From Minisyncoccota bacterium (GTDB lineage: Bacteria; Patescibacteriota; Minisyncoccia; Phycocordibacterales; UBA6065): 64,000 nt of DNA. Position numbers and translations under genes: made by a program. The stretch spans positions 19,538 to 83,537 of the forward strand of contig DASZXC010000001.1 of the NCBI GenBank assembly GCA_035546035.1. Direction: 5' to 3'. The number at the start of each line of letters is the position of its first letter. Positions within the stretch are counted from its first letter, which is position 1. Below are positions 3,595-48,203 of the stretch, in pieces. A model generated the notes under the pieces. The model saw only the letters and a list, made by a program, of their open reading frames with translations. It searched no databases and was not told the DNA's origin.

Positions 3595-4905
3595 CTAGAG
3601 CTTCGGCAGATATGCCATCGGGTCCAGATATGCGTTCGTCGGCGCAGCGACGGTCTTTATGCCTGCGCAGGTCTTTGACCCGAGGGCCGACGAGTCCACG
3701 ACGCGGATGCCTTCGCTCGCGTATACGCCGAAATGTAGGTGCGGGCCGGTGGCATAGCCGGTGTCGCCGCTATACCCGATCACATCCCCTGTTATGACCG
3801 TATCCCCCGGCTTTACCGATACGACCGACAGGTGGCCGTATATGGTCGAAAGGCCGTTCGGATGCCTGATGAGCACATATTTGCCGTACTGACAGCCGCT
3901 CTTGTATTTCAGAGGCTCCGTATCGGCGACGGTGCCCGACAATGCGGCCTTTACCGGAGTTCCGATAGAGGCGGCTAGGTCTATGCCGCCATGGGTGCCG
4001 GACACGTAAAGGCGCTTGGCCGCGACGGTCTTGCCGAAGTACTGGGTGATGCGGATGCTGTCCAAAGGCCAGGTCAGGATGCCGGCCTTGGCGTCGGGAA
4101 CCGCATTCGGGTCGAGCGTCACCTTCAATTGCGACTCATAGCTGAAGAGCTCCTTTTCATACGTCTCGCGCTCGGCGATCTTGTCCGCCAGTATCTTCTT
4201 GTATTCCGCCTCTTTGCCCGCCGTCGCAGTCAAAAGCTTGGACTTCTCGTCCTTCGTCGCCAGCACCGTCTGCTGCTGGCCTGCCAGATCCTTCTGGTAT
4301 GACTTCAATTTCGACTGCTCGCCCAATGCTTCGTCCTGCTTGGCATTCAAGAGCTCGTTCAGGTCGCTCAAGTCGTCATAGCGGTCTTTGACCTTGGTCC
4401 GGAGGCTCTGGACGGCGTTCACGTAGTCCCAGGTCGCCGAGATGTTCTTGTTGTTGAGCAGGTTCTCGATCGGCGACTGCGATTCGGCGAACGCGGTGTC
4501 GCGGATGGATTCGGCGATGGCTTTCGATGTCGCGGCGATCTTGATCTCCGTGTCCTCGATATCGTCGTCGAGCTGCTTCAGGGTCAGGCTGGTCTTCGAT
4601 ATCTTCTGGCTCGTCAGGGCCAAGTTCGTCTCAAGCTTCTTCTGGGTCAATTCGAGCGTCTTAAGGGCGCTTGAGAGCGTCTGGGCTTCCTTGGATGTCG
4701 AATTGAGGAGCGTCGAGTACTGGTCTATCTGCTTCTGGAGGTCCTGGATCTTCTGATTGTTCTCGGTGATCTTCGCGCGTATGTCGTCGGCAGAATCGGC
4801 TGCGGACGCGGGCGAAGCCGTCTCTATGCATAAGAACAAAAACGCGGCGCAGAACGCCACGGCGATGCTCGCGGTTTTTATATTACGGAAGCTGTGTTTT
4901 GGCAT
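3595..4905 (-). CDS. M23 family peptidase (LytM domain) with N-terminal signal/TM and a long coiled-coil, EnvC-like
   Basis: C-terminal GTHGGIDLAASIGTPV...GYSGDTGYATGPHLHFGVY contains the M23 HxxxD and HLH motifs. The Q/K/L-rich middle looks coiled-coil. Start is ATG at 4905 or TTG at 4941; either overlaps the gltX stop by 22-58 nt. Confidence 0.8.
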   Translation of the reverse strand: MPKHSFRNIKTASIAVAFCAAFLFLCIETASPASAADSADDIRAKITENNQKIQDLQKQIDQYSTLLNSTSKEAQTLSSALKTLELTQKKLETNLALTSQKISKTSLTLKQLDDDIEDTEIKIAATSKAIAESIRDTAFAESQSPIENLLNNKNISATWDYVNAVQSLRTKVKDRYDDLSDLNELLNAKQDEALGEQSKLKSYQKDLAGQQQTVLATKDEKSKLLTATAGKEAEYKKILADKIAERETYEKELFSYESQLKVTLDPNAVPDAKAGILTWPLDSIRITQYFGKTVAAKRLYVSGTHGGIDLAASIGTPVKAALSGTVADTEPLKYKSGCQYGKYVLIRHPNGLSTIYGHLSVVSVKPGDTVITGDVIGYSGDTGYATGPHLHFGVYASEGIRVVDSSALGSKTCAGIKTVAAPTNAYLDPMAYLPKL

Positions 4906-33590: not shown

Positions 33591-35384
33591 CTAGCTCAAC
33601 ACCGCTTTGATGCGGCGGACACCCGCAGAAACTGCTTCTTCTTTCTGGATCTTGAACGTGCCGAGCTCTTTGGTGTTCATGACGTGCGGACCGCCGCAGA
33701 ATTCCTTGGAATATGCGCCCGCGAGATCGTCGCCGATGTAATAGACAGACACGACATCGCCGTATTTGTCGCCGAAGAAATGATATGCGCCCGTCTTGAG
33801 AGCTTCCTCTTTTGGAAGCTCTACCTTATTGACCGGGAGCGCTGCCTTGATTTTTGCATTCACGATGTCTTCAACGCGCTTTTTCTCGTCATCGGTCATC
33901 TTCGCCGTATGGGTAAAGTCGAAACGCAAACGTTCAGGCGTGATATTCGAACCCTTCTGCATAACATGGTCGCCAAGCACTTCGTGGAGCGCCTTGTGGA
34001 GCAAATGGGTCGCCGTGTGATAGCGGAGCGACATATCGGATGTGTCGCCGAGACCGCCTTTGAATTTCTGCTCCGCGCCGGCGCGGGAGAGGTCTTGGTG
34101 CTTTTTGAATTCGATCTCGTAAGCGCCGCGGTCTACGACGAGGTCCTTGCCCCGCGCAAGCTCGATGGTCATGTCTATAGGAAATCCATAGCTCGAAAAG
34201 AGCGTGAATGCGTCGGTAGCGGTTACTTTTCCTGTCTTAGCAAGCTTTTCGAATTCTTTAACGCCCTGATCGAGAGTCTTCGCGAACTTATCAGCCTCTT
34301 TCGATATCTCATCGATGATCGTTGCCTCGCCCGATTCGATATTCGGATAGAAAGCGCTGAACTGCTCGACGAGGATGCCGATCAGCGTCTCGACGGACGA
34401 TCGGTCGAGCTTCTTGGCATCGGTATTGAATACCATGCGGCGAATGATGCGGCGCAGAACATAGCCCTGATCGGTATTCGCAGGGACGACCCCGTCGGCG
34501 ATCATGAATGTCGCGGTACGGATGTGGTCTGAAATGATGCGCTGGCGACGGATATCGCCTGCCAACGTTTTTGCGATAGCCATGATAGGCGCGAATATAT
34601 CGGTCTCGAACACATTCGATTTCTTCTGGAGCACCGTACAGACGCGCTCGAAGCCCGAACCCGTATCCACGTTCTTTTTGGCGAGCCTGCCGACGATCTT
34701 TCCGTCCTTTTTCTCGTACTCCATGAATACGTCGTTCCAGATCTCGACGACTTTCTGCGCTTCGTCGGCGGCGTCATATTGTTCAGGCGTCAGATCGCCC
34801 AATCCTTCGGGAGTAAGGTCATAGAACATCTCGGAGCACGGGCCGGTCGGGCCGGTCCACGTGTCTTTGCCCGGTTCTTTACTCTTGACCGCGGGCCACC
34901 AGTTCGCCGATGCGCCCTTGAAATAGATGCGATGCTTTGGCATGCCGACCGATTCCCAGATACGCGCAGCCTCGTCGTCGCGCGGGGCATTCTCATCGCC
35001 GGCGAATACTGTCACGTAGAGGCGCTTCGGGTCGAGACCGAATCCTTCGGTTTTCGACGTGAGCAATTCATAGCTCCATGCGATCGCCTCTTCCTTGAAA
35101 TACGAGCCGAGCGACCAGTTGCCCATCATCTCGAAGAACGTCAGGTGCGTATTGTCGCCGATATCGTCTATATCGCCCGTGCGGACGCATTTTTGAAAAT
35201 CAGCGAGCCTGTCGCCCTGCGGGTGCGCCCTGCCCATGAGATACGGGACCAAAGGCTGCATGCCCGCGGTATTGAAAAGCACCGTCGGGTCGTTTTCAGG
35301 CACGAGAGAGGCCGAAGGTATGATGGCATGCCCCCTCTTTTCGAAAAAGGCCAGGAATCGTTTGCGGACTTCGGCTGATGTCAT
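33591..35384 (-). CDS. alaS: Alanyl-tRNA synthetase, short form (catalytic and editing domains, no C-Ala domain)
   Basis: FTNAGM-like block, RTGDIDDIGDNTHLTFFEMMGNWSLG and the editing HTATHLLH...CGGPHV motifs. At 597 aa it is far shorter than the usual ~870 aa. Confidence 0.85.
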   Translation of the reverse strand: MTSAEVRKRFLAFFEKRGHAIIPSASLVPENDPTVLFNTAGMQPLVPYLMGRAHPQGDRLADFQKCVRTGDIDDIGDNTHLTFFEMMGNWSLGSYFKEEAIAWSYELLTSKTEGFGLDPKRLYVTVFAGDENAPRDDEAARIWESVGMPKHRIYFKGASANWWPAVKSKEPGKDTWTGPTGPCSEMFYDLTPEGLGDLTPEQYDAADEAQKVVEIWNDVFMEYEKKDGKIVGRLAKKNVDTGSGFERVCTVLQKKSNVFETDIFAPIMAIAKTLAGDIRRQRIISDHIRTATFMIADGVVPANTDQGYVLRRIIRRMVFNTDAKKLDRSSVETLIGILVEQFSAFYPNIESGEATIIDEISKEADKFAKTLDQGVKEFEKLAKTGKVTATDAFTLFSSYGFPIDMTIELARGKDLVVDRGAYEIEFKKHQDLSRAGAEQKFKGGLGDTSDMSLRYHTATHLLHKALHEVLGDHVMQKGSNITPERLRFDFTHTAKMTDDEKKRVEDIVNAKIKAALPVNKVELPKEEALKTGAYHFFGDKYGDVVSVYYIGDDLAGAYSKEFCGGPHVMNTKELGTFKIQKEEAVSAGVRRIKAVLS

Positions 35385-35399
35385 AGGGCTAATCTAGCA

Positions 35400-37208
35400 T
35401 TATTCGGCCTTATCATTCAACGAACGCAGCCATGCGCGGTATTTAGCGTCCATCGCTTCGAATCCTTTGGAATTGTCGGCGACTTTCTTTTTGCCGTGGA
35501 CGAGAGATATCTTAGCGTCGAGGCCTATCCTCCCTTTCTGCTTCGGCACCGATTCGAGGCGTTCGATCTTGCGTCGCGCCTCGGCGACGACCGTATCGAG
35601 CGGGCGCGTCACCTCATGAAGGAACGCGGCGGGGCTGAACGCCTTGCCCGTCGCCATTTTGATGAATCTCTTTGACGGATATTTTGCGGCGAACTTCCAG
35701 ACTTTTTTCATCTCCTTTCCGACGTTCGGGTTATCCACGATGTATCCGTATTTCTTGAAAAAGTATTCGCGCCACTGGAATACGCCGAGCTCGGCCAATG
35801 CATAGCCGTGATAGTAGGCGGAACTTTCCCATGAATATATATGGGGGATATTGAGCGCCATGATCGAATCTTCGGCGCGATCGAAATATTTTCGGAACAT
35901 GTCGCGGGCTGTCTTGAGGACGAAATCCCTGGTCGGGTTTTTCGCCTCATATACACGCTTTTCATATTCAGAGACGAACATGATGCTCATAAGGCCGAGC
36001 GGCATCAGAGGATAGACTTTGCGAATCTTCCGCTCGTAAAGATCGAACGGATAGGCTTTGCCGTCCTTGGTACGGGCATAGCGCATCTTCCATTCGACGG
36101 ATGACGATATCGAATCCATGAACATGCTCTGAGTCTCTGCCCATGAAACCGACTGCGGCGGATATTCGGTATTTATGCAGACCTGCCGTTCGGTCGAATT
36201 CAAGAGATGCGCCGCATGGCCGCCTTCATGAAAAAGCGTATGCAGGCCTTCGATGCCTGAGCCGATCTGCCCCGGTATGGCATTGCAGGTGAAATCGCTC
36301 CGACCCGGAACGCGCTTTGAACCCTCATACCCGACCAGCTTCGGCCAATGGCAGAAGCCGTTATTGTATTTTCCTTTGCGATCGAGGAGATCGAGACGTA
36401 TCTCGCCGCCCGCGAAATCGACGCCGAGGCCTTGAAACGTCCTGCCCCAGTACATGAGAGCCTCTTCGAAGCCGAAATACGGATCTTCTTCCTTGATGAA
36501 ACTGCCGGCCATCATGTGATTCATGTTCCAGGGCTTTCGGAGGCCGGGCATGGCCTTTTCGAGCTCGCGGATACTCTTGAACGCATATTTCGTCTTCTTA
36601 TATATAGAGTCGAATATAGAAAAGAGCTCCTTCATCGTCATATCCTCGTCTTGCTTGAGCTTGTAGGCATAGAAATCGCCATAGCCGAGCTCGCGCGCGA
36701 ACCGATTGCGCTTTGCGACTAATTCCACATAGAGATCGAGCGTCGTGAGCGGCAATTTTTGGATCGCATCGAAGCACGCCTTTCGGACGGCCTCGTCGGG
36801 ATTGGTCGAGATGATACTTCCCATCTTATTACTCGACGCTTCGACGAACGCCCCCGTCTTCGGATCAGTATAGCCTTCGGTCCTCGTGGTCTGGATCTTG
36901 TGGATCTTCGCTTCGATCTCGGCGATCTCCTTGCGGAGAGGCGCGAGCTTCGCCGGCGTCTGATAGAGGCTGAAGAATCGCTTCCATTCCATTAAAGCCG
37001 CGCGGGTCGGGCCTTTCGCCTTGGCGAGATATGCGCCGGTCTTTTTAGCGAGGCCGGCGTTTGCCCTGAACGCATCGCGTGCCGCCTGGGCGTCGAGCAT
37101 TTTCGCGTTCATCGCATGGTCGCCCATATGGAATCTCCAAAAAGCCTCTTCGTATGCCGTATGAAGCTTGGCATAGGTCTCGTTCAAATATTTCAGGAAT
37201 TCGTTCAT
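35400..37208 (-). CDS. pepF: M3B oligoendopeptidase F-like zinc metallopeptidase
   Basis: HTLFHEGGHAAH contains the HExxH zinc site. A ~600-aa length is typical of PepF. Confidence 0.75.
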   Translation of the reverse strand: MNEFLKYLNETYAKLHTAYEEAFWRFHMGDHAMNAKMLDAQAARDAFRANAGLAKKTGAYLAKAKGPTRAALMEWKRFFSLYQTPAKLAPLRKEIAEIEAKIHKIQTTRTEGYTDPKTGAFVEASSNKMGSIISTNPDEAVRKACFDAIQKLPLTTLDLYVELVAKRNRFARELGYGDFYAYKLKQDEDMTMKELFSIFDSIYKKTKYAFKSIRELEKAMPGLRKPWNMNHMMAGSFIKEEDPYFGFEEALMYWGRTFQGLGVDFAGGEIRLDLLDRKGKYNNGFCHWPKLVGYEGSKRVPGRSDFTCNAIPGQIGSGIEGLHTLFHEGGHAAHLLNSTERQVCINTEYPPQSVSWAETQSMFMDSISSSVEWKMRYARTKDGKAYPFDLYERKIRKVYPLMPLGLMSIMFVSEYEKRVYEAKNPTRDFVLKTARDMFRKYFDRAEDSIMALNIPHIYSWESSAYYHGYALAELGVFQWREYFFKKYGYIVDNPNVGKEMKKVWKFAAKYPSKRFIKMATGKAFSPAAFLHEVTRPLDTVVAEARRKIERLESVPKQKGRIGLDAKISLVHGKKKVADNSKGFEAMDAKYRAWLRSLNDKAE

Positions 37209-37224: not shown

Positions 37225-37851
37225 TTATATGTATTTCTTAAGGACTTTGAAATCTTCGAGGAGCTGGCCTTTCATCCCGCCGTTATAGAGCGCGACCGCG
37301 GGATGGTACAAGGCCACGACGGTCACTTCGCCGTATGATGCCGTGCCCTTGAACTCCATGCCGTGGATTTTCGAGACGCTCTGCAGGACGGAGCCGAGGC
37401 CGTATCTCTCGAATATATATTTCATAGAATGGCGGCCGAGCGTCGCGATGACGCGGGGCTTCATTATTTCGATCTGCCGCTCGAGGAACGGCCCGTAGAG
37501 AGCGATCTCTGCGGGTTCAGGGTCGCGATTGCCCGGCGGGCGGTCTTTCACCAGATTGGTGACATAGACTTTGGCGCGGTCCATGCCGATAGACGCGAGC
37601 AATTCGTCGAGGAGCTTGCCCGACCTGCCGCAGAAAGGCTTGGCTGTCTTCGCTTCATTCTCGCCGGGAGCCTCGCCGACGAACATGAGGTGCGCCTCGT
37701 GGCTCCCCTCGCCTATCACGGGGAAATATTTGTTCTGGGTGCGATATGCATAGAGCGGCGACTTTTTGAGGCTCACGACATCGTCGCGGATCTTGCGGAG
37801 CTCGTCGGTATTGGACATAGGATTAGTATAAACGGAGAAAGAAAACTGCAC
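37225..37851 (-). CDS. Uracil-DNA glycosylase, family 4
   Basis: GEGSHEAHLMFVGEAPGENEAKTAKPFCGRSGKLL (motif A, GEAPG) and VYVTNLVKDRPPGNRDP...YHPAV match the family-4 UDG blocks. Confidence 0.8.
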   Translation of the reverse strand: MQFSFSVYTNPMSNTDELRKIRDDVVSLKKSPLYAYRTQNKYFPVIGEGSHEAHLMFVGEAPGENEAKTAKPFCGRSGKLLDELLASIGMDRAKVYVTNLVKDRPPGNRDPEPAEIALYGPFLERQIEIMKPRVIATLGRHSMKYIFERYGLGSVLQSVSKIHGMEFKGTASYGEVTVVALYHPAVALYNGGMKGQLLEDFKVLKKYI

Positions 37852-37880
37852 ACCCTAGCTCGGGGTGTGCAGGAAATCTT
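37842..37880 (-). terminator. Intrinsic terminator between the small ORF and the UDG gene
   Basis: ctgcacacccc-gagcta-ggggtgtgcag followed by ttttctttct on the minus strand. The hairpin loop contains the upstream stop codon. Confidence 0.5.
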
Positions 37881-38118
37881 TGGCATGATGATCGACGAAG
37901 TGGAGAATGAGCTCTTGCTTCGTCGGTTCATGCCCGAGGTCCCGGCGCGCTTCTTCGATATGTTCGGGAGACAAGGCCTGCAGCGTCTGCAGTATATTGT
38001 CTCTCATGATCTCGAGCTCTTGCCGTACATGGCTCGTGATATTCGCGTTCGCGAGCCTCTTCATGCATTCGGCCAGGCCCATACGGAGCCGCGCCTGAGG
38101 AGACGCTAGGTTTTCCAT
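37855..38118 (-). CDS. Hypothetical small helical protein (87 aa)
   Basis: GC3-rich frame starting at MENLASPQ. The longer ORF-track version, extended to 38295, would overlap ogt and is rejected. Confidence 0.45.
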   Translation of the reverse strand: MENLASPQARLRMGLAECMKRLANANITSHVRQELEIMRDNILQTLQALSPEHIEEARRDLGHEPTKQELILHFVDHHAKDFLHTPS

Positions 38119-38161
38119 AGATCGAGGGGTTGGGGTTGAGGTGTAGGGTTTCCGTCTCTTT

Positions 38162-38446
38162 CTAGTATACACCTTCCGCGCGGAGCAAGGCGGCCTTGGC
38201 TTCGGAGCCTTTCGCGCCGCCTCGAATGCCGTTATATCCGCCGATCTTGCCGTCGGATCGCACGACGCGGTGGCACGGGACCGACGTGTCGGCATTGTTC
38301 GCCATGATCATGCCCACGGCGCGGGCCGCGTTGGGATTACCGGCACGCAAGGCGACTTCTTTATACGAAAGCGTCTTGCCCTTCGGTATGTCGCGAACGA
38401 CCTTCTCCACCCGCTCCTTAAAGGAGCCTGTCTGATTTGTTATCAT
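38162..38446 (-). CDS. ogt: Methylated-DNA-protein-cysteine methyltransferase, minimal form with only the C-terminal DNA-binding/active-site domain
   Basis: LSYKEVALRAGNPNAARAVGMIMANN...VPCHRVV carries the PCHR active-site motif and the HTH of MGMT; 94 aa. Confidence 0.75.
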   Translation of the reverse strand: MITNQTGSFKERVEKVVRDIPKGKTLSYKEVALRAGNPNAARAVGMIMANNADTSVPCHRVVRSDGKIGGYNGIRGGAKGSEAKAALLRAEGVY

Positions 38447-39215
38447 CGTTTTTTAATTTAAGTTGGACGTCACGGGCGAATTTTCGGTACATGCAGTGCT
38501 CGCAATTGGAGGACGGCGATGGCAGCTTCTCGGCGTCGAGGCACTTCTTGGCCTTCATGATAGCATCCTCGACCCAAGAATCGTCGCCGACGTGCTCGAT
38601 GAGCGTGACGTCGAATTCGAGCTTCGCGTCGAAGGCTTTTTTGTCCTTGCGGCCGTTCACGTATACGAAGTAGCCCGTGTCGGAGACCTTGAATCCCTTG
38701 CGGCGGAGAAGCCATTGGTATACCTCCATCTGCCGCTTGTACTGGCGGTCCCAGCCGGAATCAGAGAGCGTCTCTATCTTTCCGTCCTTAGACGTCGCTT
38801 TGTAGTCCACGACAATGAGCTCCTCTTTCGGATTGATCCAGACGTCGTCGATCGCGCCGCTGATCGTCAGTCCCGAATTCGGGTCTCCGTACTGGATGCC
38901 GGTGAAATTCGTTCGCCAGTCTTCCAGGTCCTTGTGAGCGAACGGAACGGCCTTCACGCCGTATCTTTCCATGAGCGGATGCGCCGTCTTGCCGGCGCGA
39001 TGTATATCGAATTCTTTTTTAAGGAGCTCGTCGACGGCGATGTTCAGCGTGAACGACGGCCCGCGCGGGCGCGACACGCCGAGCTTGTTGTCTAGGTAGA
39101 AACAGAGCGGGCATTCCATGAAAAGGTCCAGCTTCGAACGCGAAAGCTTCCACTTCGGCCCTCCGTAGTTCCAGTCTTTGCTCCGTATCTGCAGTTTTTT
39201 GACGTATTCGGCCAT
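38418..39215 (-). CDS. Cas4-like PD-(D/E)xK nuclease with Fe-S cysteines (DUF83/RecB-family fold)
   Basis: N-terminal LSRSKLDLFMECPLCFYL (Cas4-type first Cys), catalytic-type D...EELIVVDYK (DxK) and a C-terminal CLDAEKLPSPSSNCEHC cluster. The 3' end overlaps the ogt start by about 28 nt. Confidence 0.6.
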   Translation of the reverse strand: MAEYVKKLQIRSKDWNYGGPKWKLSRSKLDLFMECPLCFYLDNKLGVSRPRGPSFTLNIAVDELLKKEFDIHRAGKTAHPLMERYGVKAVPFAHKDLEDWRTNFTGIQYGDPNSGLTISGAIDDVWINPKEELIVVDYKATSKDGKIETLSDSGWDRQYKRQMEVYQWLLRRKGFKVSDTGYFVYVNGRKDKKAFDAKLEFDVTLIEHVGDDSWVEDAIMKAKKCLDAEKLPSPSSNCEHCMYRKFARDVQLKLKNDDNKSDRLL

Positions 39216-39241
39216 CTTGCTTGGAAATTCTTTAGAAAATC

Positions 39242-40075
39242 TTACGCGCACAGATGCTCGATCTCGAGCAGGACCTGCTTCACCTTTTCCCGCGGGATGC
39301 CATAGCTTACCAGATTGCCGCCGTGGGCCGCTACCTGCTTGCAGAGCACCATGCCCGCATCCAGAAGCGTCCGCTTTTCGGTCTGGGATAGGCTCGTCAG
39401 AGACGTGAGCGGATGCAAGCCTGATTCCTGGATGAGGTCTTCGAGATTACCTTTAGCCGGATAATTCCAGCCGACGAGCGACAGCCCCTTGCATTCAGCG
39501 TAGTGGATGGCCGTATCGGTGAATTTGGTATTAGTGAAGAGCTGGAACGAAGATATCTTACGCTTCACGCCGCCGAAATCGTATTCGCCGTCCTTGAGGT
39601 CGTCCCAGCGCGCCTTCACATAGAGCGCTACCTTCAGATCGGATTTGACGCCGTATTCGTTATGGAATTTCGCTTCGACCATGGCGAGCCCCTTTCCCTT
39701 CCACGCGACGACGTCCACTTCGTGCGGAACGCACGAGCCATAGACGATCTGATCGGTGAGGGCTTCGTACCCTTCTGATTTGAATATCTCGGCGATGAAT
39801 TTCTCGAACGGGAAGCCGTTCGGGCCGAGGTCGGCGATGGCGCGCTTCATGGAATATCGCGCGGCGACCGGCTGGGCATGTTTGCGGAGCATTTCGAACG
39901 CATGGCGGTAGAGCTCTGCCGTGGTCGTCCCGGCGACGAGGTCGCGCTCGACGTGGCGGAGCACGTTTTCAGCCTGGTCTTTCGACGCGCCGGCCTTGCG
40001 GAGAGAGTTGACGAGCTTGGCCGGGTCGAAAGCCTCCTGTTCTCCCGTTGCTTTAACGATCAAAAGGGGGGACAT
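39242..40075 (-). CDS. ATP-cone domain protein fused to a restriction-endonuclease-like (Mrr-like PD-(D/E)xK) domain
   Basis: The N-terminal 85 aa (LLIVKATGEQEAFDPAKLVNSLRKAG...ELYRHAFEMLRK) fit the ATP-cone consensus. The C-terminal domain has HEVDVVAW...LAMVEAKF (D/ExK core). It overlaps the Cas4-like gene by 10 nt. Confidence 0.6.
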   Translation of the reverse strand: MSPLLIVKATGEQEAFDPAKLVNSLRKAGASKDQAENVLRHVERDLVAGTTTAELYRHAFEMLRKHAQPVAARYSMKRAIADLGPNGFPFEKFIAEIFKSEGYEALTDQIVYGSCVPHEVDVVAWKGKGLAMVEAKFHNEYGVKSDLKVALYVKARWDDLKDGEYDFGGVKRKISSFQLFTNTKFTDTAIHYAECKGLSLVGWNYPAKGNLEDLIQESGLHPLTSLTSLSQTEKRTLLDAGMVLCKQVAAHGGNLVSYGIPREKVKQVLLEIEHLCA

Positions 40076-40082
40076 GCCCTGA

Positions 40083-41174
40083 TTATAGCACTATGCCGCC
40101 GCCGAGACAGACATCGTTTTCATAGACGACGATAGATTGGCCGGAAGCGACGATAAGAGGCGCTTCGAATATGATCTTCGAGCCTTGGACCCTGCAGGGC
40201 ATGCGTTCGCCGAGATGGCGGATGCGGGCTGCGTACTTCTTCCCCGCTTCGGGTCTAACCGAGATCCAATTGATAGAGCCGAGCGCGAATTCTCCTTTCT
40301 CAATGGGCAAAGCGCCCGAGGGCGATCGGTGAGAGACGGTAACGATATTTTTTGCAAGATCGCGGGCGATGACATAATACGGCTCGTCATTCGGAGTCGT
40401 CGTCACGACGCTGAATCCGTGGCGTTCGCCGAGGGTCAGGAACATCGCGCCATCGTGCGAACCGATGACACATTCCTTCTCGTCGATAACGTTCCCGCGC
40501 TTCGGCGCGATGTAATGTGAGAGGAATTCCTTGATATCGACTTTTCCTATGAAGCAGAGGCCCTGGCTGTCCCTTTTTTCCGCTACAGGCAGGCCAAATC
40601 TACGCGCGAGACGGCGCGTCTCCGATTTTTCCATGCCGCCGACGGGAAAAAGGGCCTTTGATAGCTCGCGGCGCGTCAGAGTCCACAGAAAATACGACTG
40701 ATCTTTGCCCTGGTCCTTTCCGGCGACGAGTTCGTAGCGGTTTTCCTCGCCTTCCGCGAGACGAACCTGCACATAATGCCCCGTCGCAACCCAGACATCT
40801 TCGCCTGCGGCGCGCTGTCTCATCGCCCAGTCGAAGAATCCGCCGAATTTCACGTGACGATTGCACATGATATCGGGATTCGGCGTCCTTCCCGCCCGAT
40901 ATTCGAAGATCATGTGGTCCACGACTTCCTTTTTATATTCTTTTTCCAGATCGAGCGTCACGAACGGGATGCCGAGATGCGCGCATACGCGCATGGCGTC
41001 GAGGCGGTCTTCGCGCCAGGAACATTCCATCCAGTCGGGCTGCCAGACTTTGATGAAAACGCCCGTCACGTCAAAGCCGCGCTCTTTTAACAGGGCGGCG
41101 GATACCGACGAATCCACGCCGCCTGACATGCCGACGAAAACCCTTCTTTTTGGCGCGCTTGGTTGACTAACCAT
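40083..41174 (-). CDS. mnmA: tRNA-specific 2-thiouridylase
   Basis: VFVGMSGGVDSSVSA is the PP-loop, with NPDIMCN and the other MnmA blocks; 363 aa. Confidence 0.9.
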   Translation of the reverse strand: MVSQPSAPKRRVFVGMSGGVDSSVSAALLKERGFDVTGVFIKVWQPDWMECSWREDRLDAMRVCAHLGIPFVTLDLEKEYKKEVVDHMIFEYRAGRTPNPDIMCNRHVKFGGFFDWAMRQRAAGEDVWVATGHYVQVRLAEGEENRYELVAGKDQGKDQSYFLWTLTRRELSKALFPVGGMEKSETRRLARRFGLPVAEKRDSQGLCFIGKVDIKEFLSHYIAPKRGNVIDEKECVIGSHDGAMFLTLGERHGFSVVTTTPNDEPYYVIARDLAKNIVTVSHRSPSGALPIEKGEFALGSINWISVRPEAGKKYAARIRHLGERMPCRVQGSKIIFEAPLIVASGQSIVVYENDVCLGGGIVL

Positions 41175-41238: not shown

Positions 41239-41787
41239 ATGAGTGTCAGATGTTTACCGATAGAGCACGGCCGACCGGGATTCCGAACGGTCGGAGAGCC
41301 GATTCCCGAACCAAGCAAGGTCATCGTCGGCGATCCGCCGGCCCTCGCGCCGTTCAAGGTCACGTTCGAGCTTTATGGCGGCGAGGATGAGAAAAAGGAT
41401 CCTACCAAGACCTCGCCGGAGCATATCAAGCGATCGATGGAGAAAGCCTATAACCAGAATCTCTGCGGCGAATTCTGGATCAGGCCTGACGGATCGCTCG
41501 TCCGGAGCATGTTCTGGCGGGACATCATGCAGAAGACGATCCTGCAGAAGCCCGTCGTGAGCCTTCGGATCGACTGCTCGGACCTCATCACGGCGCTCAT
41601 GCTCACGAGGCTCGCCGCGTATTCCGGACCGGTGAACCGCATCGATTCGGGATTCAGCTGCGAATCCTGGCGCCTCCTCCTTTCCTGCAAGGAAAGCCCG
41701 GAATGGAACGACCTTCTCCTCTTCTTCGACGGCAGGTTCGTCCTCAAGAGCGTCCTCCTCGAAGCAGTGAAAGGAAAAGCCTGCTGA
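41239..41787 (+). CDS. Hypothetical protein (182 aa) on the plus strand with its own terminator
   Basis: GC3-rich plus-strand frame and no motif recognised. A hairpin terminator follows immediately downstream. Confidence 0.45.
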   Translation: MSVRCLPIEHGRPGFRTVGEPIPEPSKVIVGDPPALAPFKVTFELYGGEDEKKDPTKTSPEHIKRSMEKAYNQNLCGEFWIRPDGSLVRSMFWRDIMQKTILQKPVVSLRIDCSDLITALMLTRLAAYSGPVNRIDSGFSCESWRLLLSCKESPEWNDLLLFFDGRFVLKSVLLEAVKGKAC

Positions 41788-41805
41788 TCGTATATGCCGG
41801 ATGCG

Positions 41806-41835
41806 AGCCGCGCGTCATCGCGCGGCTTTTTTATG
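41806..41835 (+). terminator. Intrinsic terminator
   Basis: agccgcgcg-tcat-cgcgcggct followed by ttttttat. Confidence 0.65.
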
Positions 41836-44240: not shown

Positions 44241-45317
44241 CTAAGCTACCGCTGAATACCTGCCCTCCTTATCCTTCTTGAAATACTTCGGGTTCTGGAG
44301 ATTCACAAGGATCGTATTCTCCTTCACGTACCGCTCCTTCATGACCTTCTCGACGATCTCTTTTTTAGTGAGGGGACCGTTCTTGTCTATGATCTTCTTG
44401 ATGACATCCTTCACCACACCCGACATATAGCCCCATTCAGAGAGCGCGTAGAGCCCGCGGCCGACGAGGACGAAGCGAGGGTCCTTGATAAGCTCGTTGT
44501 GAGTGGTCGCGACATGAGCCTTCTTGTCGAACATCTTTTCGATCTGCTTCGCCACCTCGCGAAAGTGAATCGGCGAGCCGTGCTTCCTGATCACGAGAAA
44601 CGCGTAATCGCGCATGCCCTTTGCCTTGATGTTCGGAGAGTGAGATACGCCCCATTCGCCGAGAGGGTTCTTGCCCACCTTTTTAGAGAGAGAAAGCCAT
44701 CGCTTGAGGATCTCTTCGTTCCGGTACTGGTCGTTGAGACCTTCGATGTGGTTGAGGAAGGTGTCGATCATCTCCGATTCGGGGATGATGTCGTCATCTT
44801 TGAGGTTCTTGTAGAGCTTCTTGAGGGCATCTTCGACTTTCTTCGAAGTATCCTCGTCTACATGCCATCGGTGCTTGAAATGGTCGTCCTCTTTCTGCCA
44901 CTTGAACGCGCGGCCGAGCACGAGGAGGAAATATATATGGTTCTGGATAGAGGCGTCCTTGGAAACAGAATCGAGAAGGTCCTCTTCGGCCATGACGCCG
45001 CCCAATTCCCGCATCATGCCTTCGAGCTCCTTGAAAGCCGCGGCCTGGGCTTCGTATTCCTTCGATTTCTGGATGTTCGAGATAGCGTAGTTCTCGATCT
45101 GCCGGACACGCTCGCGGGTGATGCCGTATGTCTTGCCTATGGCCTCGAGCGTCATCTTCTTGGCGTCCTTGCCGAGGCCGTAGCGCTTCACGATGACCTC
45201 CTGGGCGCGGTCAGGGAGGCTCTTGAGGAGCGCTTTGACGACCTGCTTTGGCTTGAGGGTGAGGCTCGTGGTCATAATCGTTACTTTGTTTGTATCATTG
45301 GTTTGATAGTAAGTCAA
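44241..45317 (-). CDS. Sigma-70 region 4 (HTH) domain protein fused to an unknown C-terminal domain of about 270 aa
   Basis: The N-terminal LPDRAQEVIVKRYGLGKDAKKMTLEAIGKTYGITRERVRQIENYAISNIQ fits sigma-70 region 4 / LuxR-like HTH. No regions 2 or 3 are detectable. Confidence 0.55.
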   Translation of the reverse strand: MTYYQTNDTNKVTIMTTSLTLKPKQVVKALLKSLPDRAQEVIVKRYGLGKDAKKMTLEAIGKTYGITRERVRQIENYAISNIQKSKEYEAQAAAFKELEGMMRELGGVMAEEDLLDSVSKDASIQNHIYFLLVLGRAFKWQKEDDHFKHRWHVDEDTSKKVEDALKKLYKNLKDDDIIPESEMIDTFLNHIEGLNDQYRNEEILKRWLSLSKKVGKNPLGEWGVSHSPNIKAKGMRDYAFLVIRKHGSPIHFREVAKQIEKMFDKKAHVATTHNELIKDPRFVLVGRGLYALSEWGYMSGVVKDVIKKIIDKNGPLTKKEIVEKVMKERYVKENTILVNLQNPKYFKKDKEGRYSAVA

Positions 45318-45362: not shown

Positions 45363-48203
45363 CTACTTAACGACGATCGACACAAGCTTGTCCTGAACGA
45401 CGATCACCTTCTCCGGCTTCTTGTCCCCTACCCATTTCTTCACGTCGTCGAGAGCGAGAGCGGCCTTTTCGAGCGCGGCCTTTTCGGCGCCGCGCGGCGC
45501 AACGAAATCACCGCGCACCTTGCCATTCACCTGGACGACGATCTTCGCCGATTCGTCGGCGATCTTTGATTCGTCGGCGACAGGCCACGGCGCGACATTG
45601 ACCAATTTTCTATTGCCGAGATCCGCCCATAATTCATCGGCGACATGGGGAGCGAACGGAGCAAGGAGCCTGACGAATATGCCGAAATCGTCAGCCGAAA
45701 GGGCCGGCTCTTTTTCAAGCGCATTCAAGAGGATCATGAGGGACGAGACGGCCGTGTTGAATCCCATGGCTTCGATATCGGTAGAGACCTTTTTAACGGT
45801 CTTATGGAGGAGCGTCTCGGCTTCCCTTGAAACCTTCGCGCCCTTGGTTATTTTTTCGGCGAGAGCGTATGCTCTTTCGACGAATCGGCGCGGTCCGATG
45901 ATGCTCTTGGTGTCCCACGCGATGGCCTGATCGAAGGGCCCCATGAACATCTCATAGAGGCGGAGCGAATCGGCGCCATAGGTCGCCACGAGGTCGTCAG
46001 GATTGACGACGTTACCGAGCGATTTGGACATTTTGACGCCTCCTTCGGCGAGTATGAGGCCGTGCGACGTGCGCTTCATGTACGGCTCGTCCGTATTTAC
46101 CGCCCCGATGTCGAAAAGGAATTTATGCCAGAAGCGCGAATACAAGAGATGCAGCGTCGTGTGCTCCATGCCGCCGTTATACCAATCTACGGGCGCCCAA
46201 TACGCGATCTTGTCCTGCGCGGCGAATGCTTCTTTATTCTTCGGATCTATATAGCGGAGATAGTACCAAGAAGAACCTGCCCAATTTGGCATTGTATCGG
46301 TCTCTCGGCGCGCAGGGCCTTTGCATTTCGGGCATGTGACGCTCACCCAGTCCGTAATGACGGAAAGCGGAGATTCGCCCGTATCGGTCGGCTCGTATTT
46401 TTTCACCTTGGGCAATTCGACGGGCAAGTCTTTTTCAGGAACGGGAACCCAGCCGCACGATTCGCAATGGATCATCGGTATAGGCTCGCCCCAGTAGCGC
46501 TGGCGCGAGAATATCCAGTCGCGGAGCTTGTACTTCACGACCCAAGCGCCGCCCACGGCTTCAGTGATCTTCTTGCGGGCTTCAACGGATTCCATGTCAT
46601 CGAAATCATTGGAATTGAAAAGGATACCGTCATCGGCATAGACATAGTCATCGTTATCAAGGATATTCAAGATGAAATCGCCCTCGAATACGGTGAAGAA
46701 ATTCTTGAGCTCGTTTCTCTTCTTCCAGACGACCTCGTGGAGAGCAGACTCTCTTTCATCGACGGCCGCGCGTTCGTCATTCTCCAGATCGAAGAATACG
46801 AAACTGAAATGAGCGTGGCGATTTTGCTTTTTGACGCGGTGATAGAAGAACGTGTTTATCTTTATATCCGACGTCCTCATGTGCTTTAGGTTTTTGTAGC
46901 CAGTCTCTTCGAGGACCTCGCGGCGGGCCGCTTCGACGAGGTCTTCGCCTTTTTCCACGCCGCCTGTGAAGAGGCCGTGCATATGGATTCCCTTCCAGCT
47001 ATTGCAGAGGTACGTGCCGTCCTCCGGATTTCGCACGACGATACAAACCGCGTCGCGCTTTACGAACGGCAAATCGGGCCTAATCGCTCCTTCGCCGGAG
47101 AGACCTTTGAATGCAGGCTCGATGACGCGACGGATCGGCAATCCGAACTTCTTGGCGAACGCATGGTCGCGCTCGTCGTGGGCAGGTACGGCCATGACCG
47201 CGCCAGTTCCATACGTCGCGAGCACGTAATCGGAAATGAATACGGGAATCTCTTCGCCATTCGCCGGATTTATCGCCACAACACCATCGAGCTTTACGCC
47301 GGTCTTTTCTTTCTGGGCGTCGGTGCGGGCGATCTCGTCCATTTTCTTGGCAGCCGAAACGTATCTTTCGACTTCCGTCTTGTTTTTATATGAAAGCCTG
47401 GAAACAAGCTCATGCTCCGGCGCCAGAACGAGGTATGTCACGCCGAAGAGCGTGTCGGGACGGGTCGTAAACACGCGGACTTTTTCATTCGCGCCTTTGA
47501 CTGCGAAATCAAGCTCCGCGCCTTCGCTCCGGCCGATCCAATTCCTCTGCTGGATCTTTATCTTCTCCAGATAATCTACTTTGCCGAGGTCGTCATAGAG
47601 CCTGTCGGCGTATTTAGTGATAGCGAGCATCCATTGCTCTTTGACGCGCTTCTCCACCGGAGTACCGCAGCGCTCGCAGCAGCCGTTCACGACTTCCTCG
47701 TTCGCCAGTCCGATCTTGTCCTTGGGACACCAGTTGATCTCGGTCTTGGCTTTGTATGCGAGGCCCTTTTTATACATCTCTATGAATATCCACTGGGTCC
47801 AGCGGAAATACGCCGGATCGCTCGTATTCACTTCGCGCGACCAATCGAACGATAGGCCGAGGGATTTGAGCTGCCTTCGGAAGTTATCGGTATTCTCTTC
47901 CGTCACATCCTTCGGCTGGCGGCCGGTCTTGATGGCGTAGTTTTCCGTAGGCAGTCCGAAAGCGTCCCAGCCTATGGGATACAAGACGTTCTCGCCCTGC
48001 ATGCGGCGCTTCCTCGCGACGATATCCATCGCGGTGTAGCTCCTGATATGGCCGGTATGGAGGCCAGAACCCGACGGGAACGGAAATTCGACGAGAGGAT
48101 AGAATTTCTTCTTCGCGCTCTTATCGTCCGCCTCGTATATGCCCCGCTTCTCCCACTCTTTCTGCCACTTCTTCTCTATTTTCGAGTGATCGTACTTTTT
48201 CAT
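45363..48203 (-). CDS. leuS: Leucyl-tRNA synthetase with a Nudix hydrolase domain embedded in the CP1/editing region
   Basis: HIGH region (PSGSGLHTGHIRSY), editing-site blocks TTRPDT and GAVMAVPAHDERD, KMSKS (VKMSKSLGN), and a Nudix box GGVEKGEDLVEAARREVLEETGY (Gx5Ex7REUxEExGU) at about aa 414-436; 946 aa. Confidence 0.9.
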   Translation of the reverse strand: MKKYDHSKIEKKWQKEWEKRGIYEADDKSAKKKFYPLVEFPFPSGSGLHTGHIRSYTAMDIVARKRRMQGENVLYPIGWDAFGLPTENYAIKTGRQPKDVTEENTDNFRRQLKSLGLSFDWSREVNTSDPAYFRWTQWIFIEMYKKGLAYKAKTEINWCPKDKIGLANEEVVNGCCERCGTPVEKRVKEQWMLAITKYADRLYDDLGKVDYLEKIKIQQRNWIGRSEGAELDFAVKGANEKVRVFTTRPDTLFGVTYLVLAPEHELVSRLSYKNKTEVERYVSAAKKMDEIARTDAQKEKTGVKLDGVVAINPANGEEIPVFISDYVLATYGTGAVMAVPAHDERDHAFAKKFGLPIRRVIEPAFKGLSGEGAIRPDLPFVKRDAVCIVVRNPEDGTYLCNSWKGIHMHGLFTGGVEKGEDLVEAARREVLEETGYKNLKHMRTSDIKINTFFYHRVKKQNRHAHFSFVFFDLENDERAAVDERESALHEVVWKKRNELKNFFTVFEGDFILNILDNDDYVYADDGILFNSNDFDDMESVEARKKITEAVGGAWVVKYKLRDWIFSRQRYWGEPIPMIHCESCGWVPVPEKDLPVELPKVKKYEPTDTGESPLSVITDWVSVTCPKCKGPARRETDTMPNWAGSSWYYLRYIDPKNKEAFAAQDKIAYWAPVDWYNGGMEHTTLHLLYSRFWHKFLFDIGAVNTDEPYMKRTSHGLILAEGGVKMSKSLGNVVNPDDLVATYGADSLRLYEMFMGPFDQAIAWDTKSIIGPRRFVERAYALAEKITKGAKVSREAETLLHKTVKKVSTDIEAMGFNTAVSSLMILLNALEKEPALSADDFGIFVRLLAPFAPHVADELWADLGNRKLVNVAPWPVADESKIADESAKIVVQVNGKVRGDFVAPRGAEKAALEKAALALDDVKKWVGDKKPEKVIVVQDKLVSIVVK

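Follow-up and report, generated by a model that had tools for sequence, protein, structure and literature searches.

Organisation of the locus

The window (the whole 64-kb stretch of DNA that was analysed) comes from a contig of Candidatus Paceibacterota (Patescibacteria/CPR). Five co-directional genes lie on its minus strand at 37225-40075, as the first-pass annotation had proposed (Table 1). They encode a nuclease with an ATP-cone (G1), a second, stand-alone nuclease (Cas4L), an alkyltransferase (MGMT), a small protein (ORF4) and a family-4 uracil-DNA glycosylase (UDG). The gene and domain identifications of that annotation were right: every Pfam call equals or exceeds its gathering score, and the profile searches put no domain call below the curated threshold. 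The five-gene operon that it described is partly confirmed, and its interpretation of the locus partly supported. As a unit the interval has arbitrary boundaries, since 7 nt separate mnmA from G1 and, beyond UDG, the tightly packed co-directional array continues with genes for a PepF-like peptidase and AlaRS, after gaps of 16 and 15 nt, respectively.

Table 1. Genes and features of the locus, with context genes on either side
Feature	Position	Strand	Support
mnmA (tRNA 2-thiouridylase), context gene	40083..41174	-	Pfam tRNA_Me_trans 244.8 bits
G1, 277 aa, ATP-cone + PD-(D/E)xK nuclease + (HhH)2-like	39242..40075	-	
Cas4L, 265 aa, stand-alone RecB/Cas4/Dna2-superfamily nuclease	38418..39215	-	
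MGMT, 94 aa, single-domain O6-alkylguanine-DNA alkyltransferase	38162..38446	-	Pfam DNA_binding_1 (PF01035) 98.7 bits, gathering score 27; NCBIfam ogt TIGR00589 76.5 vs 46.4
ORF4, 87 aa, lineage-restricted small protein	37855..38118	-	small homologues; same slot in L089/L090
Intrinsic-terminator-like hairpin + T-run	37836..37872	-	scan + folding
UDG, 197 aa, family-4 uracil-DNA glycosylase	37225..37818	-	Pfam UDG 108.3, gathering score 24.3; NCBIfam UDG_fam4 TIGR00758 187.4 vs 125.3
PepF-like M3 peptidase, context gene	35400-37208	-	
AlaRS, context gene	33591-35384	-	

Overlaps between the reading frames had been taken as a sign of translational coupling among the first three genes, and this stands for one of the two pairs. 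The 10-nt overlap of G1 and Cas4L is an artefact of the longest ORF, which begins at GTG 39251. We place the start of Cas4L at ATG 39215, because homologues conserve the N-terminus MAEY..., the NCBI model has 265 aa and the start expected in related loci coincides with an ATG; this leaves a gap of 26 nt after the G1 stop codon. The overlap of about 28 nt between Cas4L and MGMT is real (29 nt, 38418-38446) and recurs elsewhere: of 13 related loci that hold both genes, 11 show an overlap, which ranges from 1 to 32 nt. This pair is probably translationally coupled.

The 87-aa ORF4 is a real gene, as had been supposed, and a search of 1.8 billion representatives returned five small homologues. It is preferred over the longest ORF (146 aa, 37855-38295) because the latter runs into MGMT and is longer than the homologues (87-109 aa). 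One homologue sits between MGMT and UDG in the related loci L089/L090, and weakly similar ORFs of 95 and 125 aa fill the same slot in L085 and L088. ORF4 and its homologues have the C-terminal motif LGhxPTxxE..HF in common; Pfam, PADLOC, NCBIfam and PHROG searches gave no match for ORF4.

The terminator that had been placed after ORF4 was recovered by a scan, as a hairpin (37872-37846) followed by a T-run. It has a 10-bp stem, holds the ORF4 stop codon within its loop and folds at -21.4 kcal/mol (z = -5.2), and none of 200 shuffled sequences was as stable. L090 has a hairpin at the equivalent position, in which the differences in the stem preserve the pairing. A GTG start of UDG at 37851 was rejected because it lies inside the terminator; the start is ATG 37818. 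An Rfam scan of the window returned only two distant tRNAs.

Domain architecture and conserved residues

In G1 an ATP-cone (aa 5-79, about 39839-40063; PF03477, 26.9 against a gathering score of 25.8) is followed by a PD-(D/E)xK nuclease domain of the AF1548/Mrr type (aa ~88-205), which contains E119, D121, E134 and K136, and by a C-terminal (HhH)2-like domain (aa ~206-277). The Pfam match to Mrr_cat is marginal (22.1, gathering score 21). The ATP-cone is identified by profile score and fold, the relationship to AF1548 by sequence and fold over the nuclease and C-terminal domains together with the D...ExK triad. The four nuclease residues are invariant in an alignment of Paceibacteria with Archaea, and so are K8, G11, E14 and K20 of the ATP-cone. 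Along its full length G1 belongs to the AF1548 family (PDB 1Y88), which also occurs in Archaea; the conservation of this family spans Paceibacteria, DPANN archaea and Archaeoglobi. Inspection of the neighbourhoods of three archaeal homologues gave no context clue. AF1548 is restriction-endonuclease-like by prediction only (PMC1821046, the 2007 GOS study), and this prediction was all that a literature search on AF1548 returned; no characterised ATP-cone nuclease emerged from the literature searched.

Cas4L scores well above threshold with Pfam PDDEXK_1 (64.8, gathering score 22) and closer to it with Cas_Cas4 (28.4 against 22.7, over aa 135-258 only); with NCBIfam cas4 (TIGR00372) it stays below the cut-off (36.5 against 65). 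The motifs that had been read from its sequence are present (CPLCFY, aa 35-40; DYK, 137-139; CEHCMY, 238-243). They belong to a larger set of CxxC (aa 35-38), D124, D137-x-K139, Q162...Y166 and CxxC (aa 238-241), and the nuclease and cysteine motifs are invariant in the alignment of homologues. The motifs D, D/ExK and QhxxY, together with the fold, identify Cas4L as a member of the RecB-family (PD-(D/E)xK) exonucleases, and its four invariant cysteines, arranged CxxC...CxxC, are putative ligands of a metal cluster, with Fe-S and Zn as the candidates. A Lys-rich tail comes after the second CxxC. Among homologues this tail often ends in xLF, which resembles a sliding-clamp motif only, the customary leading Q-L being missing.

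Cas4L is indeed stand-alone, as first described: the window holds no CRISPR-like repeat array in its 64 kb (only chance two-copy repeats) and none of the ten flanking proteins is a Cas protein. A role as a CRISPR-located Cas4 was rejected on the lack of an array and on the housekeeping neighbours, which are likewise found in related loci with called genes.

The active site PCHRV of MGMT was confirmed at aa 57-61, and its acceptor cysteine together with the DNA-binding domain identifies the protein as an alkyltransferase. UDG is assigned to family 4 by its curated score and by motifs A and B (GEAPG, HPAVAL).

Conservation of gene order

Presence and absence of genes were scored within 5-10 kb of an anchor gene, for the best 80 loci per scan. 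The gene order does recur in other genomes: the full order G1-Cas4L-MGMT-small ORF-UDG is found in L085, L088 and L089/L090, and G1...Cas4L-MGMT...UDG in L054, L076, L080 and L086. Contrary to the earlier suggestion of a module, the cluster does not stand alone but is part of a much longer housekeeping synteny block that runs from LeuRS to AlaRS across the Paceibacteria. Its backbone reads LeuRS, sigma factor, DUF8128, YceG, MnmA, G1, [Cas4L-MGMT], [small ORF], UDG, peptidases and AlaRS, with unrelated genes interspersed (MgtC, HD hydrolase, PCMT, peptidases); the flanks of the present locus are likewise of a housekeeping nature (YchF, LeuRS, a sigma factor, YceG, S4). In 72 of 73 informative loci MnmA precedes G1 on the same strand, in 46 of them at a distance of at most 150 nt. 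Downstream of G1 (64 informative loci) AlaRS is found in 53, UDG in 38, Cas4L in 18 and MGMT in 14. Within the backbone Cas4L, MGMT and UDG, like the unrelated genes, are gained or lost independently.

Functional interpretation

We consider it rather probable that the locus is a housekeeping region of the Paceibacteria chromosome, inherited vertically and themed on DNA maintenance, in which each DNA enzyme performs its own standard reaction. MnmA, G1, Cas4L, MGMT and ORF4 would then probably be expressed from a single transcript terminating at the hairpin 37846-37872, and UDG-PepF-AlaRS would come after it. We infer the functions of G1, Cas4L and ORF4 from folds and motifs only. G1 would be a DNA nuclease that is anchored to its predicted substrate via the HhH domain, and ATP or dATP at the ATP-cone may set its activity or oligomeric state, by analogy with NrdR and the ribonucleotide reductases. 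Cas4L would be a metal-cluster-stapled exo/endonuclease of the RecB type, with DNA ends or flaps as its presumed substrates. From its sequence, the one-domain MGMT is expected to accept O6-alkyl groups of guanine on Cys58 in a suicide reaction, and the family-4 UDG would excise uracil, with which base-excision repair starts. In a streamlined genome, such co-location may allow genes for genome maintenance to be expressed together.

The succession of four DNA-metabolism genes, of which two overlap, is more thematic than chance neighbours would be, and together with the tie between MGMT and Cas4L this makes some direct functional coupling conceivable. It could go as far as a dedicated multi-enzyme DNA-damage module, in which Cas4L and MGMT, perhaps joined by G1 and ORF4, cooperate physically; for example, the nuclease might process DNA next to alkylated sites or to sites with bound MGMT, or remove alkylated MGMT-DNA complexes. 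We regard this as unlikely. The overlap of the two frames here and in related loci argues for it, as do the position of MGMT immediately 3' of Cas4L in 19 of 70 Cas4L-anchored loci and the terminator-like hairpins that flank G1-Cas4L-MGMT-ORF4 on both sides in L090. In G1-anchored loci MGMT accompanies Cas4L in 11 of 18 cases and is rare where Cas4L is missing (3 of 46; Fisher p = 1e-5, ignoring phylogeny), yet 7 of the 18 loci with Cas4L have no MGMT. Every Cas4L-MGMT pair that was seen lies, moreover, within the MnmA...AlaRS backbone, for which a single arrangement in an ancestor could account, and about half of the Cas4L homologues occur in unrelated contexts without MGMT; a search for recurrent neighbours in 39 Cas4L loci without any gene of the window found none. 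Fusion proteins are absent among the best 120 matches of either nuclease family. A more specific form, in which G1-Cas4L-MGMT-ORF4 is a dedicated repair operon of an ATP/dATP-gated AF1548-family nuclease, a possibly clamp-tethered RecB-type exonuclease and a minimal alkyltransferase coupled by translation, seems doubtful to us; if true, it would be a compact lesion-processing pathway that replaces larger canonical machineries in ultra-small genomes.

Nucleotide salvage is a further and rather improbable explanation: in an organism with poor de novo deoxynucleotide synthesis, G1 would sense the ATP/dATP pool and, with Cas4L, degrade imported or damaged DNA for its deoxynucleotides. The conserved ATP-cone residues and the abundance of the G1 family in small-genome CPR and DPANN lineages agree with it, and so does the proximity of the two nuclease genes (of 57 informative loci, 13 have them adjacent and 14 others no more than about 1.5 kb apart). 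However, Cas4L is absent within 10 kb of G1 in 46 of 64 loci, no locus examined links them to uptake or salvage genes, and the G1 family also occurs, beside unrelated genes, in free-living Archaeoglobi (Ferroglobus, Geoglobus).

The first-pass annotation also suggested defence or anti-defence against invading DNA modified by alkylation or by uracil. In its favour, defence systems often contain nucleases with Mrr-type or Cas4-type folds, the nuclease domain of G1 is similar to Mrr-type restriction enzymes and to CRISPR ancillary nucleases, and Cas4L matches the phage protein family phrog_31195 (E = 1e-23). Nevertheless PADLOC, run on the five proteins and ten flanking ones, detected no defence system; it returned generic Cas4 profiles for Cas4L, one weak ZorD nuclease-domain match for G1 (E = 0.008) and nothing for MGMT, ORF4, UDG or nine of the ten flanking proteins. 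For the five proteins, NCBIfam and PHROGs yielded generic family matches only. A nuclease-alignment scan of 2.9 million viral contigs (IMG/VR) found no relatives of G1 and one weak relative of Cas4L, and a tblastn search of 50,697 INPHARED phage genomes matched neither. No methyltransferase, cas gene or CRISPR lies nearby, and signals of mobility are lacking. The window is uniform in base composition, with flat GC, and G1 is fixed beside mnmA. The three archaeal G1 homologues inspected lie outside defence islands. Thousands of homologues of the two nucleases, almost all from Patescibacteria, are 55-80% identical throughout a whole class, a high conservation that looks vertical. The defence reading is already largely refuted, and we consider it highly improbable.

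In itself the locus adds little, being one more copy of an arrangement of annotated families that numerous public genomes of Paceibacteria share. The claim that it would be undescribed was overstated, as NCBI annotates each gene, the nuclease core of G1 has a crystal structure (1Y88) and Hudaiberdiev et al. (2017, PMC5704561) have discussed solo Cas4 as frequent in CPR and passed on vertically. The locus does draw attention to two nuclease families that are large and highly conserved but have no experimentally characterised function, one combining ATP-cone, AF1548-type nuclease and HhH (> 5,000 relatives), the other a solo RecB-type nuclease with CxxC...CxxC (at least 8,000 relatives). Each of them has the look of a core factor of genome maintenance in CPR bacteria, and the first in several archaeal lineages as well. 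If the ATP/dATP pool does gate a nuclease here, this would be a new use of the ATP-cone, and characterising the nuclease would help explain how genome integrity is kept with minimal repair repertoires.

Comparison with known systems

The Pfam architecture of the AF1548 family combines ATP-cone (PF03477), Mrr_cat (PF04471) and AF1548-like_C (PF22357). Unlike G1, the crystallised AF1548 (1Y88) has no ATP-cone, and whereas the bacterial branch is fixed beside mnmA, the archaeal genes have unrelated neighbours. NrdR and ribonucleotide reductases also carry ATP-cones, but G1 has neither the zinc ribbon nor a reductase and its output is a nuclease with HhH, so that an assignment as NrdR was rejected. 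Can2/Card1-type ligand-gated PD-(D/E)xK nucleases have CARF as their sensor, where G1 has the ATP-cone. Mrr-type restriction enzymes contain an Mrr_N DNA-recognition domain that G1 lacks; since only Mrr_cat is matched, the N-terminus is an ATP-cone and the context is housekeeping, G1 was also rejected as an Mrr type IV restriction endonuclease. Unlike the Can2/Card1 and Mrr systems, G1 has no type III CRISPR and no restriction-modification genes in its context.

In Cas4 and AddB the cysteines follow a 1+3 pattern, whereas those of Cas4L are arranged 2+2. In fold, Cas4L resembles Cas4 no more than it does Dna2, RecE, AdnAB, MGME1 or EXO5. Like the Solo-Cas4 / PDDEXK_1 nucleases (PMC5704561; M. 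mazei Solo-Cas4, PMC12501428), Cas4L is stand-alone, apparently inherited vertically and common in CPR genomes without CRISPR, and has RecB nuclease motifs with four cysteines that bridge the N- and C-termini; unlike the Solo-Cas4 reference families it scores higher with PDDEXK_1 than with Cas_Cas4 and carries the Lys-rich tail.

UDG matches the enzyme of Sulfolobus tokodaii (4ZBX) at E = 3.7e-51, and the motifs GEAPG and HPA(V/A)AL are common to UDG and the family-4 enzymes 4ZBX, 1UI0 (T. thermophilus) and 1VK2 (T. maritima). All four [4Fe-4S] cysteines of archaeal UDG4 are replaced (L/F, S, D, Y) both in UDG and in 42 Paceibacteria homologues. Finally, MGMT shares the C-terminal DNA-binding/active-site domain with PCHRV with canonical Ogt, Ada-C and MGMT, but lacks their N-terminal domain and aligns to the C-terminal halves only (M. 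tuberculosis Ogt, Ada-C, human MGMT). In size it is akin to the single-domain ATL proteins (3GVA, 116 aa; 2KIF, 108 aa), which lack the acceptor cysteine that the 94-aa MGMT keeps.

Gene content and reading frames

The minus-strand genes are packed tightly from mnmA through AlaRS (see the table). In the NCBI annotation G1, which joins an ATP-cone to an Mrr/AF1548-type nuclease and a C-terminal (HhH)2-like domain, is named "ATP cone domain-containing protein", and Cas4L, a stand-alone nuclease of the RecB/Cas4 superfamily, "PD-(D/E)XK nuclease family protein". All domain calls of the first-pass annotation score above the curated thresholds and the motifs it quoted are present; taken as a whole, that description was largely right.

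Features of the locus and its upstream flank (a negative value in the last column is an overlap)
Feature	Position	Strand	Length	Distance to next gene (nt)
LeuRS	45363-48203		946 aa	
Sigma-70 region 4 + HARE-HTH protein	44241-45317			
Strong terminator-like hairpin after the 182-aa ORF	41805-41828			
Unannotated ORF	41239-41787	+	182 aa	
mnmA	40083-41174	-	363 aa	+7
G1	39242-40075	-	277 aa	+26
G1 linker, aa 83-91	39803-39829			
Cas4L	38418-39215	-	265 aa	-29
Cas4L C-terminal tail	38418-38490			
MGMT	38162-38446	-	94 aa	+43
ORF4	37855-38118	-	87 aa	+36
Hairpin across the ORF4 stop codon	37836-37872			
UDG	37225-37818	-	197 aa	+16
PepF-like M3 peptidase	35400-37208	-	602 aa	+15
AlaRS	33591-35384	-	597 aa	

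It had been proposed that the first three genes, G1, Cas4L and MGMT, have overlapping starts and stops. This holds for Cas4L and MGMT; an overlap of G1 with Cas4L would require a start at GTG 39251, which was rejected, as an alignment of 18 homologues places the family N-terminus (MAEY.K...RS.DWNYGG) at ATG 39215. The NCBI model likewise has 265 aa. Where Cas4L adjoins G1 in other loci, the aligned start is, with one exception, an ATG between 17 nt inside G1 and 42 nt past its stop. The Cas4L/MGMT overlap recurs: it measures 29 nt in L043, L061 and L069, 32 nt in L076, 16 nt in L054, 8 nt in L072 and L078, 6 nt in L047 and 1 nt in L080 (all loci from other genomes). The start of UDG is ATG 37818.

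The 87-aa ORF4, which public data also list as a called protein, is a genuine gene with five homologues of 87-109 aa (30-48% identity); no family was detected in Pfam, PADLOC, NCBIfam and PHROG scans. Its last codons form part of a hairpin whose loop contains the stop codon, CUGCACACCC-N7-GGGUGUGCAG followed by UUUUCUUUCU (folding energy -21.4 kcal/mol, z = -5.2). This terminator is conserved: at the corresponding position in the related locus L090 a terminator-like hairpin (4265-4288 of that locus) covers the stop codon of the ORF4 homologue, its stem changed in sequence with the pairing retained (CTGCACACCC/GGGTGTGCAG in the window, GCGCTCACCC/GGGTGGGCGC in L090). L090 has a second such hairpin immediately upstream of G1, so that G1-Cas4L-MGMT-ORF4, with a hairpin at either end, seems to form a bounded unit there. 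In L085 a terminator lies between mnmA and G1, and none was found after the small ORF.

Gene order in other genomes

The eight genes were sought by tblastn in the best-scoring 80 of at least 597 G1 matches, loci of species-representative genomes; in this and in the Cas4L scan, a gene counted as present if it lay within 5-10 kb of the anchor, and the best-scoring 80 loci were covered. Among these 80, mnmA lies upstream of G1 on the same strand in 72 of 73 informative loci (within 150 nt in 46). Downstream, 64 loci were informative, with AlaRS in 53, UDG4 in 38, Cas4L in 18 (directly adjacent in 11), MGMT in 14 and PepF in 12, and a divergent M3 peptidase in a further 15 loci. The interval from G1 to AlaRS is a mosaic, which also holds MgtC, an HD hydrolase, a PCMT methyltransferase, M29/M32 peptidases, EamA and others. 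In some of the genomes (G1-anchored loci L012, L059) AlaRS follows G1 almost directly and no repair gene separates them, which shows that the intervening genes can be dispensed with at that position.

The gene order of the window does recur, as had been asked: the closest relatives (L085, L088, L089/L090) carry the full series G1-Cas4L-MGMT-smallORF-UDG-PepF-AlaRS, and L086 carries G1-Cas4L-MGMT-UDG, as do L054, L076 and L080 with or without insertions. L083 reads MnmA-Cas4L-MGMT-UDG-PepF-AlaRS, without G1. According to the called-gene tables of long contigs, the upstream backbone extends over LeuRS, a sigma factor, DUF8128, YceG and MnmA in exactly the order of the window. The sigma-70 region 4 + HARE-HTH protein is kept in L083, L085 and L088. 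LeuRS carries a NUDIX domain inserted at aa 382-499 (55.9 bits), a combination also listed for its homologues in L083 and L085. The 182-aa ORF between YceG and mnmA has no match in Pfam or PADLOC; L088 has an unannotated 184-aa gene in the same place on the opposite strand.

Anchoring on Cas4L instead (best-scoring 80 metagenome loci), MGMT was found directly downstream in 19 of 70 informative loci and G1 upstream in 27 of 57, 13 of them adjacent. In 39 of the 80 loci no other gene of the window is present, and these 39 share no recurrent neighbour. Among the loci examined, the Cas4L-MGMT pair is confined to the MnmA...AlaRS backbone. In the best 80 G1-anchored loci MGMT is present in 11 of 18 with Cas4L vs 3 of 46 without it (Fisher p = 1e-5, kinship ignored); since the loci are phylogenetically related, the association may reflect one ancestral arrangement.

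Housekeeping or defence

The first-pass annotation read the locus as an undescribed damage-processing module, or as one for defence or anti-defence. This is mostly unsupported. A repeat search confirmed that the 64 kb contain no CRISPR array, as had been noted, and the ten flanking proteins scanned lack any cas or defence-system match; they are housekeeping or unannotated (YchF, DUF5671, LeuRS, the sigma-70 region 4/HARE-HTH protein, YceG, ribosomal protein S4 and others, including a weak FtsA-like match). Against a defence or mobile module stand these flanks, the fixed chromosomal position and a homologue identity of 55-80% over a whole class. GC content is flat over the window (0.51-0.59), without a step at the locus. 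PADLOC returned only generic Cas4 profiles, besides a partial MzaA match to the HTH of the sigma-70 region 4/HARE-HTH protein, which is no sign of a defence system. Viral scans based on short peptide patterns gave no IMG/VR relatives for G1, a single one for Cas4L (45% identical) and none for either among INPHARED phages. The sole viral hint is that Cas4L matches phrog_31195 (E = 1e-23), a family without characterisation.

With moderate confidence, we regard the locus as an ordinary operon of Paceibacteria, conserved and serving the housekeeping maintenance of DNA. A closer functional partnership of Cas4L with MGMT, or of G1 with Cas4L, is possible, as is a role in nucleotide salvage; the data require neither.

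Protein families

The best profile for Cas4L is PDDEXK_1 (64.8 bits); it passes Cas_Cas4 and misses the cut-off of the NCBIfam cas4 equivalog. The homologue alignment shows invariant RecB-family motifs and, towards either end of the protein, an invariant CxxC pair. The tail after the second pair is Lys-rich, variable in length and probably disordered, and the MGMT start codon falls within its coding sequence. About two thirds of 119 homologues (P0121-P0240) end in xLF or xLL (e.g. TSLF, TASLL, KLF; DRLL in the window), an ending reminiscent of peptides that dock onto a partner, for instance sliding-clamp motifs. Solo-Cas4 genes often occur in genomes of CPR and DPANN lineages without CRISPR, evolve mainly vertically and have been suggested to have possible, uncharacterised roles in repair or defence (Hudaiberdiev et al., PMC5704561). 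The Solo-Cas4 of M. mazei is a DNA nuclease with a [4Fe-4S] cluster (PMC12501428).

A profile of 17 G1 homologues matches Archaeoglobus fulgidus AF1548 (PDB 1Y88; E = 7.6e-41, aa 92-276). A search with AF1548 retrieved relatives of 260-280 aa from Archaeoglobi, Nanoarchaeota, Aenigmarchaeota and Hadesarchaea with ATP-cone, Mrr_cat and AF1548-like_C domains; around three archaeal homologues the neighbours are unrelated housekeeping genes (CorA, amino-acid permease, glutamate-synthase-like). The gene model of the crystallised protein (199 aa) appears to lack its N-terminal part (P0248 comparison), since a 99%-identical protein has 265 aa and, like nearly all archaeal relatives, an ATP-cone. In the joint alignment Paceibacteria and Archaea share 34-40% identity, and K8, G11, E14 and K20 of the ATP-cone and E119, D121, E134, K136 and H138 of the nuclease are invariant across both domains of life. 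Because of the profile match and these residues, we place G1 by sequence as a bona fide member of the AF1548 family, which is old and annotated, and without functional characterisation; the sole functional statement that we found in the literature is a 2007 prediction of a restriction-endonuclease-like protein (PMC1821046). Equally invariant are the linker LGPxGFxFE between ATP-cone and nuclease and the nuclease-domain cysteines C115 and C195, which could together form an element coupling sensor and nuclease.

MGMT has an intact PCHRV and aligns with the active-site domain at the C-terminus of Ogt, Ada-C and human MGMT; their N-terminal domain is missing from it. UDG clearly belongs to family 4 (E = 3.7e-51 to 4ZBX, from S. 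tokodaii). The four [4Fe-4S]-ligating cysteines of 4ZBX are all substituted (by L/F, S, D and Y), both in the window protein and in 42 of 42 Paceibacteria homologues examined (from L002-L080). These proteins look like a cluster-free UDG4 lineage.

Proposed roles

The chief interest of the locus lies in two abundant nuclease families, those of G1 and Cas4L, which are without experimental characterisation. We propose that the repair genes represent co-expressed genome-maintenance functions, each acting in its standard reaction: UDG would excise uracil, MGMT would directly reverse O6-alkylguanine, and Cas4L would process ends or flaps as a RecB-type nuclease. G1 may be a nuclease anchored by its HhH domain, with ATP/dATP acting through the ATP-cone to alter its activity or oligomerisation; the structural inferences draw on AF2 models built from alignments of 17-18 sequences, which are shallow. 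Such a nucleotide response is suggested by analogy to NrdR and the ribonucleotide reductases, and in architecture G1 is analogous to the CARF-nuclease effectors.
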